54,783 bases of DNA from Lachnospiraceae bacterium UBA1778 (GCA_002315255.1 DCGM01000106.1:9064-63846); one strand, 5' to 3'. Positions 32,315-34,039 are shown, counted from the stretch's first letter. Numbers and translations: made by a program. Notes: generated by a model not told the origin, from the sequence alone.

Positions 32315-34039
32315 TTATTCGGATTCTTCGGTAGGTTCTTCTGTCGGTTCCTCCGTAGGTTCTTCCGTAGGCTCTTCATCCGTAGGCTCCTCAGTTTCCT
32401 CATCCGTCGGGTCCTCGGTACTATCCTCGGTGCTGTCCTCGGTGCTGTCCTCGGTTCCCTCTTCGGTTGAATCTTCCGTGGAGGCTTCGGTTGAAGCCGT
32501 ATTCCTATCATTCTCCACAACCTGCGCTGTGATCTCGATATCGTCTTCTGTCAGATCAAAATCATGTTTGAAGAACAGTAGCGAGAGACTGGTGTACGCC
32601 TGGAGGTATACCGTCAATGTTCCGTCCGTACGGTTAAGCGCCAGCGGGTCATTGTTCAGCAGGTTGAATGCATTATTCTCAAACTCATTTAAGTAAATCA
32701 GTTCGGGATTCCAGGAAATGACTACCTTCTTCGTAGCTTCGCCATCGATTAGGTTCGTCTTTAAGCTGTAGTTCACGAGGATGTTTCCGGGCGTTGTATT
32801 GATTTCAATGTCTCGGAAGAAGCTGTCTGCTCCTTCAACCTCCAGCGTGAACTGGCCGCCGATGTGGTGGTAATAAGTATCATCAGGGGCCGTTACCGCG
32901 GTAATCGTAAACCGGATCTGCTCGAGCCATCCTAAGCTCTCTCCGGATTGAGACCGGACGCAGATTTTAAACGCATGCGATATACCGCTGGCATCATTGC
33001 CTTCTAATAAGAACGGCCCGTAATAGGGGCCCTCAAACGCGTCATAGCCTTCCGTCGAAGGATTGAACACGTCGCTCGCACCGAGTTCCCGCCATTCGTC
33101 AGGCTTTAAAAACGGGGTTTCCGAGCACTCTACACCGTCCGCGTATAGCGGCTCAATCCAGATGTCATAATCTGTGTTAAACGTTCTGGTGCCCTCTGAC
33201 GCAATCTTCTCGACTGCGATCATATAGCGGATATCATGACCTTCTGTATTATAGAGGAGTTTATTTTCAAAGTTGGCAATTTCAAATTCCAGTTCGTATT
33301 GAGCACCGTTCCATCCTCGCGTCATATACTCTTTCGTATCGGCTGAAAGATAGCCGCAGGCGAAGAAGCTGGAGGTTGCGACCATGTGATCGTATTCGTT
33401 TAAATACGCCACATATTTCCCTTCCGTCATGCACGGGGCCGTCAGCACGAGGCTTGCAGCTGCGATGCATCCCATGACGCGCATGAGCGTCGGCCGTGGG
33501 AACGGGCTTCTCTCTTTCGAAAGCCGGTCGTAAATATAATTGAGAACCGGTCTTCCGAAGAAGAGGACTAAGAGGAGGACGCACATCAGGATCAATGCTT
33601 TCGTCGAGGAGAGAAGCCTTGTGGCAAATCCGAGTTTCGGGAAAACATGCACTACCTTTCCGACATATTCCGCTGCGCTGATCGGATCATCTTCTGCTTC
33701 ATTGGCAGTACCCTTCGTCACAAACCGGCTTCCTGCCTGCTTGATGATCGCGTGTGTGACGAAGCTGTCATTCCGATAGTAGGTAACGATGTCTCCGACG
33801 GCCAGCCCGTCGTAGTCCCCGCTCTTAATGAGGATCAGGTCTCCTGTCATAATCTCCGGTTCCATCGAGCCGGACTCTACGGAAAGCACCGCGTACGGAA
33901 GCCACCGGAGTTTTTCGGAAAGACCTGTTTTAGTTAAGATAATCGTTAAAATGTTGATAGCAATGAGACCGCTTAAAAGGATTGTGAGAAGTACCTTCAG
34001 GACCTTATAGGCGGTGGTCTTTAAGGTATTTCCGTTCAT
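32315..34039 (-). CDS. SipW/Sec11-type (S26B) signal peptidase I fused to a C-terminal substrate-like exported domain with an acidic tail (574 aa)
   Basis: The peptidase part has:
- an N-terminal TM (VLKVLLTILLSGLIAINILTIIL);
- a Ser box LSVESGSMEP;
- a His box VTHAII;
- TKGTANEAEDDP (SipW KGDNN..D-type box);
- a second TM ALILMCVLLLVLFF.

The fused part has a basic loop and a third hydrophobic segment MRVMGCIAAASLVLTAPCMTEG. Next come KYVAYLNEYD...FFACGYL (compare CalY/TasA TFAYFSD...TFAAGTL) and a ~350-aa domain resembling the neighbouring 557-aa protein. The tail is TEDSTEDSTEDSTEDPTDEETEEPTDEEPTEEPTEEPTEEPTEESE. The gene has an ATGA overlap with the upstream gene. Confidence 0.8.
   Translation of the reverse strand: MNGNTLKTTAYKVLKVLLTILLSGLIAINILTIILTKTGLSEKLRWLPYAVLSVESGSMEPEIMTGDLILIKSGDYDGLAVGDIVTYYRNDSFVTHAIIKQAGSRFVTKGTANEAEDDPISAAEYVGKVVHVFPKLGFATRLLSSTKALILMCVLLLVLFFGRPVLNYIYDRLSKERSPFPRPTLMRVMGCIAAASLVLTAPCMTEGKYVAYLNEYDHMVATSSFFACGYLSADTKEYMTRGWNGAQYELEFEIANFENKLLYNTEGHDIRYMIAVEKIASEGTRTFNTDYDIWIEPLYADGVECSETPFLKPDEWRELGASDVFNPSTEGYDAFEGPYYGPFLLEGNDASGISHAFKICVRSQSGESLGWLEQIRFTITAVTAPDDTYYHHIGGQFTLEVEGADSFFRDIEINTTPGNILVNYSLKTNLIDGEATKKVVISWNPELIYLNEFENNAFNLLNNDPLALNRTDGTLTVYLQAYTSLSLLFFKHDFDLTEDDIEITAQVVENDRNTASTEASTEDSTEEGTEDSTEDSTEDSTEDPTDEETEEPTDEEPTEEPTEEPTEEPTEESE
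32318..32500 (-). repeat. Tandem 12-nt-type repeats encoding the acidic Thr/Glu/Asp/Pro C-terminal tail of the peptidase fusion
   Basis: The + strand shows gtcctcggtgct x3 and (t/c)tc(c/t)tccgtagg(t/c) x4. The translation contains TEDS x3 and PTEE x4. The composition matches the giant protein's linker. Confidence 0.8.

Follow-up and report, generated by a model that had tools for sequence, protein, structure and literature searches.

Architecture of the fusion gene

The minus strand of a 54,783-nt stretch of DNA from Lachnospiraceae bacterium UBA1778 (GCA_002315255.1 DCGM01000106.1:9064-63846), referred to as the window in the following, carries an open reading frame (ORF) in which a SipW-like signal peptidase is continued in frame by an exported-type domain. 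This fusion ORF comprises 574 aa plus stop (32315..34039) and is uninterrupted over this interval in the ORF listing. All window coordinates given here are counted from the first letter of the stretch and refer to features on the minus strand. The ATG of the fusion overlaps the TGA of the upstream 572-aa gene as ATGA, which suggests that the two genes are translationally coupled.

The chain starts with a transmembrane segment, TM1 (aa 16-36, 33932..33994), which is the N-terminal membrane anchor of the peptidase and lies in a helix (residues 5-38) that was predicted by AlphaFold2 (AF2) with a confidence score (pLDDT) >90. Lys7, Lys12, and Lys15 mark its cytoplasmic side. TM1 is followed by the extracellular catalytic domain of an endoplasmic reticulum (ER)-type signal peptidase (aa 40-135, 33635..33922) and by TM2 (aa 148-170, 33530..33598; AF2 helix 146-173), the C-terminal TM of the peptidase module, which aligns with the C-terminal TM of a stand-alone 309-aa paralogue and leads the chain back to the cytoplasm. 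A cytoplasmic basic loop (aa 171-187, DRLSKERSPFPRPTLMR, 33479..33529), assigned from the sequence, connects TM2 to a third hydrophobic segment, TM3 (aa 188-207, 33419..33478), which consists of the h-region VMGCIAAASLVLTA and the c-region PCMTEG. Behind TM3 follow the predicted mature N-terminus (aa 208-232, KYVAYLNEYDHMVATSSFFACGYLS, 33344..33418), an all-β exported domain of an unnamed family (aa 233-508, 32516..33343) and a low-complexity tail rich in Thr, Glu, Pro, and Asp (aa 509-574, 32318..32515). The tail is strongly acidic, with 31 D/E vs. 1 K/R in the 64 residues 511-574, varies in length among homologues, has a pLDDT <50 and gave compositional matches only in Pfam and NCBIfam (PT repeat, S-layer glycoprotein linker).

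The AF2 model was calculated from a 42-sequence alignment (pLDDT 82) and contains helices at residues 5-38, 146-173, and 185-205/207-217, the β-core of the peptidase and a confident all-β region at ~236-507. A first-pass annotation of the window had listed the basic loop, the third hydrophobic segment, a motif KYVAYLNEYD...FFACGYL and the acidic tail, and had placed both the peptidase and the C-terminal domain outside the membrane. All of these elements are found in the sequence, the motif starting at K208 (KYVAYLNEYD...FFACGYLS), and the proposed topology agrees with the AF2 helices.

The same annotation had pointed out that a frameshift or missed stop codon near nt ~33480-33520 would turn the ORF into two genes, and other genomes do contain split arrangements. 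Homologues of the whole protein and of its C-terminal part were collected. A word-index search revealed full-length homologues with 64% (P0001) and 32% (P0002) identity. In an exhaustive comparison with 1.84 billion cluster representatives, a profile of the C-terminal domain alone matched 138 of them at E≤1e-3 and 30 at E≤1e-30. About 35 of the 138 are proteins of ~480-690 aa in which the C-terminal domain starts at residue ~170-260, and every one of these has a SipW-like peptidase ahead of it. A word-index search with a 12-sequence profile of the C-terminal domain gave only 8 matches owing to the limit of the word index, and the exhaustive search is the informative one. In total, the fused architecture was found in 38 distinct homologues, down to ~28% identity, from independent assemblies of ENA, JGI, Logan, and NCBI (metagenome-assembled genome (MAG) UBA1779). 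Where the domain stands alone, no peptidase gene is located immediately upstream. The joining of two neighboring genes by an assembly or sequencing error, conceivable a priori, is refuted by these conserved homologues and independent loci and has practically no probability left: because the same architecture is present in P0001, P0002, and ~35 further representatives, sequence comparison excludes a frameshift or missed stop codon, and the fusion is genuine and conserved.

An internal segment with the features of a signal peptide

TM3 can be aligned column for column with the N-terminal signal peptides (n-, h-, and c-regions) of >100 proteins in which the C-terminal domain stands alone. In the stand-alone as well as in the fused proteins, this segment ends in a common site, a small residue followed by [K/R/Q]-Tyr (small-residue↓[K/R/Q]-Tyr). 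The residues around the site were counted in 112 stand-alone and 38 fused proteins. Position P6 is mixed in the stand-alone proteins (G24, R19, P15, S14), whereas 28 of the fused proteins have Pro. P3 is occupied by T/V/A/L/I/S in the former and by Thr in 36 of the latter. All 112 stand-alone proteins have A/S/G/T at P1 (A87, S10, G8, T7), and the fused ones have Ala in 30 cases and S/T/G in the rest. P1' is K/Q/R in the stand-alone set and K/R in all 38 fused proteins, and Tyr at P2' is found in 108 and 37 proteins, respectively. The cleavage-type motif P-x-x-T-x-A↓K-Y is stricter in the fused than in the stand-alone proteins. In ~33 of the 38 fused proteins, the last basic residue precedes the site by exactly 20 uncharged residues.

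In the window, the segment reads R187 - VMGCIAAASLVLTA - PCMTEG ↓ K208-Y209, with T205 at -3 and G207 at -1, so that the predicted cleavage G207↓K208 falls between nt 33419 and 33418. It contains what is expected of the signal peptide of a SipW substrate, i.e., a basic residue (R187), an h-region, small residues at -3 and -1 and an aromatic residue at P2' (Y209). Judged by these positions, TM3 has the signature of a signal peptide, namely the (-3,-1) rule and a helix breaker at -6, and not that of a membrane anchor, because a plain anchor needs neither the (-3,-1) rule nor a Pro at -6. The basic loop would serve as its n-region. The h-region of ~14 residues is in the range of signal peptides rather than of TM anchors; an ER-type enzyme complex is known to select its substrates by hydrophobic length (bioRxiv 10.1101/2020.11.11.378711). 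The core idea of the first-pass annotation, a peptidase joined to a substrate-like protein, is borne out by this correspondence of TM3 to the signal peptides of the stand-alone homologues.

For TasA, an aromatic residue at P2' was reported to favor the dedicated ER-type SipW over the P-type peptidase LepB, for which the protein is a poor substrate (PMC10269814). The presence of three SipW-type enzymes at the locus (262 aa, 309 aa, and the fusion) would be explained by the aromatic P2' of the substrates.

The peptidase module

Residues 27-160 match TIGR02228 (archaeal/ER-type signal peptidase I, MEROPS S26B) with 83.9 bits at a cut-off of 51.85 (E 1.1e-23). In the comparison with the SipW equivalog NF046067, the module stays under the cut-off (62.1 vs. 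190 bits), and by these profiles it is SipW-like but not a SipW orthologue. The earlier assignment of residues ~1-170 to a SipW-type peptidase with TM1, SGSMEP, THAII, KGTAN, and TM2 is in line with the TIGR02228 match; the three motifs are located at residues 56-61, 95-99, and 109-113. Among solved structures, human SEC11C and SEC11A are the nearest in sequence (E 4e-4 to 1e-3). Ser58 (box B, 33866-33868) and His96 (box D, 33752-33754) align with Ser56 and His96 of SEC11A, the latter being the His found instead of the Lys of P-type enzymes, and Asp117 (33689-33691) aligns with Asp122, the triad Asp of box E. Among the fused homologues, Ser is kept in 38 of 38, His in 37 of 38, and the triad Asp in 38 of 38 sequences, which are only ~30% identical to each other. 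The triad Asp is also invariant in 123 stand-alone peptidases, and P0042 is the sole fused member with an exchange of the His (His→Arg).

The Asp of the 'GDxN' motif behaves differently. It is present in 113 of the 123 stand-alone peptidases from related loci and in 1 of the 38 fused proteins, the other 37 having T, L, I, V, M, or C at this position; in the window it is Thr111 (33707-33709). The Arg following the catalytic His is variable in the fused clade and is replaced by Ala97 here (THAII). In human SEC11A, the corresponding Asp116 forms a salt bridge with Arg97; the Asp116 mutant is less stable yet active, whereas mutation of Asp122 abolishes activity (bioRxiv 10.1101/2020.11.11.378711).

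A degenerate pseudo-peptidase would account for the replacement of the 'GD' Asp in 37 of the 38 fused vs. 10 of the 123 stand-alone enzymes, for the variable Arg partner and for the His→Arg exchange in P0042. In this case, catalysis would be lost with the change from GD to GT, the module would be a membrane scaffold or a signal-peptide-binding chaperone, and processing would be left to the two canonical paralogues. This explanation is improbable, as the conservation of Ser, His, and Asp at ~30% identity is hard to explain without selection for catalysis and the equivalent human Asp116 mutant retains activity. Because the triad is kept and the SEC11A Asp116 mutant is active, the module looks like an active, somewhat remodeled enzyme rather than a pseudo-enzyme.

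The C-terminal domain

Most members of the C-terminal domain family are stand-alone proteins of ~330-390 aa, with the domain directly behind an N-terminal signal peptide, and the mature N-terminus of the family has the signature A↓K-Y-x5-N-x7-A-x3-YF-x-SNYL. The protein in the window belongs to this family both by a profile match over the whole domain (138 family representatives) and by the signature behind the signal-peptide-like segment. For the C-terminal half, no Pfam or NCBIfam family was found at E≤0.1, including TasA, CalY, and TapA, and searches of PADLOC and of the PDB sequences, the latter with the family profile, gave no match.

In the AF2 model, the all-β region has a pLDDT mostly >88 and ~18 strands, which are probably arranged as two stacked β-sandwiches. 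The whole, unsplit model was compared to the PDB with Foldseek, and the best 50 of 101 matches at E≤0.001 were inspected. These are generic tandem β-sandwich matches (Vpr fibril, transglutaminase C-terminal barrels, PapD/FimC chaperones, cohesin dyad) with a TM-score ≤0.2 on the whole model. TasA is absent among the 50 matches listed for this whole-model query. A TasA-like fold, which the first-pass annotation had in view, is not supported by these matches, and the fibre-nucleating function suggested there is left as an analogy only, given that neither the family searches nor the 50 matches listed contain TasA. Residues 207-221, which include the predicted new N-terminus, are unplaced in the monomer model (pLDDT <50), and chaperone-usher proteins are among the weak Foldseek matches; residues 208-232 might, speculatively, be a flexible, interaction, or donor segment.

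The ~350-aa domain had also been described as resembling the upstream 557-aa protein. A BLASTP comparison of the two gave no match, and hhalign aligned 33 columns only, which extend from the signal peptide into the first residues of the mature protein, with a probability of 10.6%. This relationship was rejected, the likeness being limited to the signal and the N-terminal motif. The 219-aa protein, also proposed for alignment, is unrelated to the C-terminal domain in BLASTP and hhalign comparisons.

Gene neighborhood in the window

In the direction of transcription, the genes are ordered as follows: the 400-, 329-, 356-, and 418-aa proteins, peptidase no. 1, an AAA ATPase of 580 aa, an 814-aa protein, peptidase no. 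2, the 219-aa protein, the 572-aa protein, the fusion, and a 10,428-aa protein.

The gene directly upstream of the fusion (34036..35754 in the ORF listing) encodes a secreted protein that has 572 aa if counted from its GTG start and 557 aa if counted from Met16. Its signal peptide ends SYA↓KF, and homologues occupy the same position in the related loci L001, L007, and L008. The 219-aa secreted protein (35911..36570) is a candidate small subunit; its signal peptide ends TYGWYTK. A comparison by hhalign relates it to the 572-aa protein with a probability of 77%, over ~100 residues at the N-terminus. Its structural model is poor (pLDDT 58.5), and all Foldseek matches have E >0.004 and are too weak to use; those to CsuA/B and to the archaeal TasA-like AbpA (7ueg, E 0.012) were not taken as evidence.

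Both stand-alone SipW-type peptidases match TIGR02228. Peptidase no. 1 (262 aa, 41679..42467) does so with E 2e-26 and peptidase no. 2 (309 aa, 36567..37496) with E 6e-21; the latter has a canonical GDAN and is 27% identical to the fused peptidase. Its ORF overlaps the end of the 814-aa ORF (37342-39786) by 155 nt, and its first 45 residues form an implausible run of Arg and Lys. The true start is probably Met46 (MNCSKSKK...), resulting in a protein of ~264 aa.

The gene of the secreted giant protein of 10,428 aa (945..32231) is located 83 nt downstream of the fusion. The protein has an ordinary signal peptide (…HVEA↓SS), faint Ig-like Pfam matches only (Big_3_2, Big_13) and no C-terminal anchor motif. 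The 83-nt spacer between the stop codon of the fusion and the GTG of the giant gene contains a GC-rich hairpin of 10 bp (ccgggtcttt...aaaggcccgg, ~32245-32285) without a T-run, which may act in RNA processing or stability and thereby tune the expression of the giant gene.

The 580-aa protein (39796-41538) is a TM-anchored AAA_5/McrB-like ATPase. It is encoded by the most conserved gene of the locus and matches the PADLOC candidate defence protein PDC-M26A (E 1e-37). The gene is, however, always flanked by those of SipW-type peptidases and secreted proteins, and a role in secretion or assembly rather than in defence is suggested by this position.

Four secreted or membrane proteins of 418, 356, 329, and 400 aa (42544-47556) have no match in Pfam, NCBIfam, or the PDB. 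The signal peptides of the 418-, 356-, and 329-aa proteins end SFAW[FYL][ST]IS, and the 418-, 356-, and 400-aa proteins share a WLEG(Q/N)DxDC motif near the C-terminus. The 219-aa protein has an N-terminal motif in common with the SFAW-type proteins (hhalign probability 86%, 42 columns). Homologues of each of the four proteins were found with 60-70 ORF matches across 80 related loci. Just upstream of the cluster, a protein with HD-GYP (HD_5) and EAL domains is encoded (47570-48988), which is likely a cyclic di-GMP phosphodiesterase and is consistent with the control of a surface or biofilm structure. Further upstream (50638-54603), a repeat-rich protein of 1,321 aa with a C-terminal TM and a Lys-rich tail, whose listed GTG start may be wrong, is probably another surface adhesin.

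Related loci and the evolution of the fusion

A scan of genome contigs with patterns of the C-terminal domain gave no match, and related loci were identified with the conserved AAA protein instead. When GTDB species genomes were searched with this protein, at least 552 stretches matched, and 80 loci from among them were surveyed with home-made hidden Markov models. The loci belong to Oscillospiraceae, Ruminococcaceae, Lachnospiraceae, and some Bacilli MAGs, with Ruminococcus albus KH2T6 and Lachnospiraceae bacterium 10-1 as cultured carriers. The closest ones, from Clostridiales UBA1779 and Oscillospiraceae MAGs, show 68-71% identity.

A sub-operon of peptidase no. 2, the small subunit, the second subunit, the C-domain protein and a giant ORF is conserved. 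In the loci surveyed, the C-domain gene is always located immediately upstream of the giant ORF. Homologues of the N-terminal part of the giant protein were found directly downstream of it in L001, L002, L005, L007, and L008, and giant ORFs also follow it in L042, L046, and L050; in every locus examined, a homologous giant ORF (1,800 to >9,000 aa) comes after the C-domain gene. The domain is fused to the peptidase in the window, L001, L002, L005/6, and L008, and stands alone in L007 and 13 Lachnospiraceae-type loci, which answers the earlier question of whether orthologues are split in related genomes. The operon of L007 is collinear with that of the window. Its C-domain gene of 353 aa, which is not preceded by a peptidase, encodes a signal peptide itself (…SVTEA↓KYVGELN…) and sits, as in the window, between the 572-aa homologue and the giant ORF.

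A rough neighbor-joining tree, calculated from the mature domain, places 35 of the 37 fused proteins in one clade, in which the stand-alone proteins L007/P0051 and P0046 are nested. The fused proteins P0067 and P0079 are found in a different, otherwise stand-alone clade and look like a second, independent fusion. According to this tree, both fusion and fission have occurred, as would be expected if the covalent link is cut after insertion anyway. By Rosetta-stone logic, the fusion ties this peptidase lineage functionally to the C-domain family.

Further fusions of SipW-type peptidases were observed. In Ruminococcus (R. albus KH2T6, L073 11634-14609; L059, L079, L086), the 814-aa homologue is C-terminally fused to the next SipW-type peptidase, forming proteins of ~970-1030 aa. 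This is another fusion, of independent origin, that involves a peptidase of the locus, and it points to a physical cooperation between the cytoplasmic 814-aa protein and the peptidase. Among the word-index matches (L003, L004), a class B sortase is joined to a SipW-type peptidase in P0009-P0011 and a CBM96/DNRLRE domain in P0026. In P0024, P0025, and P0027, also word-index matches, the peptidase is followed by a third TM ending GGTVSYFSDSE and by a further domain. By sequence, these three look like peptidase-substrate fusions of independent origin in another lineage; when the C-terminal half of P0027 was compared with the PDB sequences, no match was obtained. In three Bacilli MAGs (L061 15482-16033, L067 15476-16027, L085 15556-16107), stand-alone peptidases of 183 aa with GD→I/L are located directly upstream of giant ORFs of >1,800 aa, and the giant ORF of L085 begins with a signal peptide ending SFSWMY.

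Proposed processing of the fusion protein

The architecture is solidly established by sequence comparison, and the processing step is an interpretation built on it. In the reading considered best, to which a probability of roughly 0.55 is assigned, TM3 would be an internal SipW-type signal peptide that is cut at G207↓K208, freeing an acidic β-sandwich protein that works with the giant protein. A precursor with three TMs would be inserted so that the peptidase domain and the C-terminal part are both outside the membrane. Cleavage at G207↓K208, which is somewhat favored by the site residues described above, would yield a membrane peptidase of 22.5 kDa and a freed protein of 41 kDa with an isoelectric point of ~4, comprising the conserved K-Y N-terminal segment, two β-sandwich domains and the acidic tail. 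The freed protein would act together with the 219-aa, 572-aa, and 10,428-aa proteins in a surface or matrix assembly, in which it would probably be an accessory subunit or adaptor for the giant protein.

Candidates for making the cut are the peptidase domain of the fusion itself, acting in cis or on another copy, and the two SipW-type paralogues of the operon. It is doubtful that the fused module, rather than the canonical paralogues, is the cutter. Likewise, a self-processing enzyme-substrate polyprotein, in which the internal signal peptide is cleaved by the module preceding it in the chain (in cis) or by that of a neighboring copy, is put forward only tentatively. If it were true, each released subunit would leave one active, specialized peptidase at the place where the 10,428-aa protein and its partners emerge, and the stoichiometry, location, and timing of processing would be coupled to the building of a giant structure on the surface of gut Clostridia.

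Several points weigh against this reading. Cleavage is deduced from the sequence alone, and in the AF2 model residues 185-217 form an almost continuous helix through the proposed site. TasA is not found among the 50 structural matches mentioned above. The loss of the GD Asp, often together with its Arg partner, might weaken the enzyme. With two canonical SipW paralogues present, the fused peptidase is not needed for the cut, which makes self-processing the weakest step. The 20 uncharged residues could span the membrane, and by analogy to the sortase and CBM96/DNRLRE fusions, whose partners are surely not released substrates, a third TM can be a permanent anchor.

This last possibility leads to the main alternative, in which TM3 would remain uncleaved as a signal-anchor and keep the β-sandwich domain joined to the peptidase at the membrane surface. 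The tethered domain might hold or recruit substrates (the giant, 219-aa, and 572-aa proteins) at the active site or be the membrane-proximal base of the assembly. Besides the AF2 helix and the length of the uncharged segment, the fusions in P0009-P0011 and P0026 speak for it, as they show that the scaffold tolerates permanent extracellular partners. The Bacilli peptidases with GD→I/L directly ahead of giant ORFs suggest that the peptidase serves the giant protein. Furthermore, in a model proposed for BsaA of Clostridium perfringens, growing polymers are transiently anchored by signal peptides that SipW has yet to cleave (PMC11580942). However, Pro at -6, Thr at -3, and Ala at -1 are stricter in the fused proteins than in the stand-alone ones, which surely have signal peptides of a cleavable type, and the h-region is short for a stable anchor. 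In addition, the stand-alone genes nested in the fused clade have an identical c-region (VTEA↓KY), so that the domain works without a covalent link to the peptidase. A permanent tether is considered possible but unlikely.

The fusion family is a natural experiment on how ER-type signal peptidases recognize and cut their substrates, as it presents a substrate-like protein in cis at a fixed distance, with 20 residues from the cytoplasmic Arg to the site. It also flags a widespread, uncharacterized cluster in rumen and gut Oscillospiraceae, Ruminococcaceae, and Lachnospiraceae, in which SipW-type peptidases (two or three) occur together with a membrane-anchored AAA protein, several secreted proteins of unknown family and giants of 2,000-10,000 residues. 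The repeated fusions (peptidase/C-domain, 814-aa/peptidase, peptidase/sortase) are Rosetta-stone clues to components that act together.

Comparison with known systems

The nearest known systems are the tapA-sipW-tasA operon of Bacillus subtilis and the sipW-bsaABC operon of C. perfringens, in which a dedicated ER-type peptidase is encoded together with its secreted substrates. To our knowledge, SipW-type peptidases dedicated to cognate substrates have always been described as separate genes. Full-text literature searches revealed no description of a peptidase-substrate or SipW fusion, nor of the locus in Ruminococcus or other Clostridia.

The system in the window shares with tapA-sipW-tasA a Ser-His(-Asp) peptidase of the ER/archaeal type with N- and C-terminal TMs in an operon with secreted proteins, signal peptides that end in a small residue followed by an aromatic P2', and a neighborhood that suggests biofilm or surface functions (giant adhesin-like protein, HD-GYP/EAL). 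It differs in that the enzyme and its putative substrate are one polypeptide connected by an internal signal peptide, that the peptidase lacks the GD Asp and stays under the SipW equivalog cut-off, and that the C-terminal domain has no sequence match to the TasA, CalY, or TapA families. The cleavage site TxA↓KY is also different from what we take to be the TasA/CalY-type motif.

The sipW-bsaA-bsaB-bsaC operon of C. perfringens is, like the window, from Clostridia; alongside SipW, it encodes a large accessory protein and several secreted subunits of a matrix or polymer. There, the genes are separate, and neither a giant protein of 10 kaa nor an AAA/814-aa pair is present; BsaA and BsaB are remote homologues of TasA, whereas the proteins in the window are not detectably so. 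A published model for this operon couples cleavage by SipW to assembly at the membrane (PMC11580942).

The triad positions Ser/His/Asp are shared with human and yeast SEC11, which, in contrast to the fusion, has one TM, needs accessory subunits and forms the Asp116-Arg97 salt bridge that is absent here. We know of no SEC11 that is fused to a substrate. In flavivirus and hepacivirus polyproteins, an internal hydrophobic segment restarts translocation and is then cut by the host type I signal peptidase at its lumenal or external end. The peptidase is a separate host enzyme in that case, whereas in the bacterial protein described here it would be the preceding module of the same chain.

The other SipW-type fusions (with sortase, CBM96/DNRLRE, the GGTVSYFSDSE group, and the 814-aa homologue), for which no description was found in the searchable literature either, extend the same TM-catalytic-TM scaffold with unrelated partners, either an extracellular module behind a further TM or a cytoplasmic protein, and the sortase and CBM partners are unlikely to be cleaved substrates. 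Compared to the operons of B. subtilis and C. perfringens, the locus in the window differs in combining an enzyme and a substrate-like protein in one chain, with a distinct peptidase lineage, an undescribed partner family without a demonstrable relationship to TasA, and the company of an AAA/814-aa pair and giant proteins.

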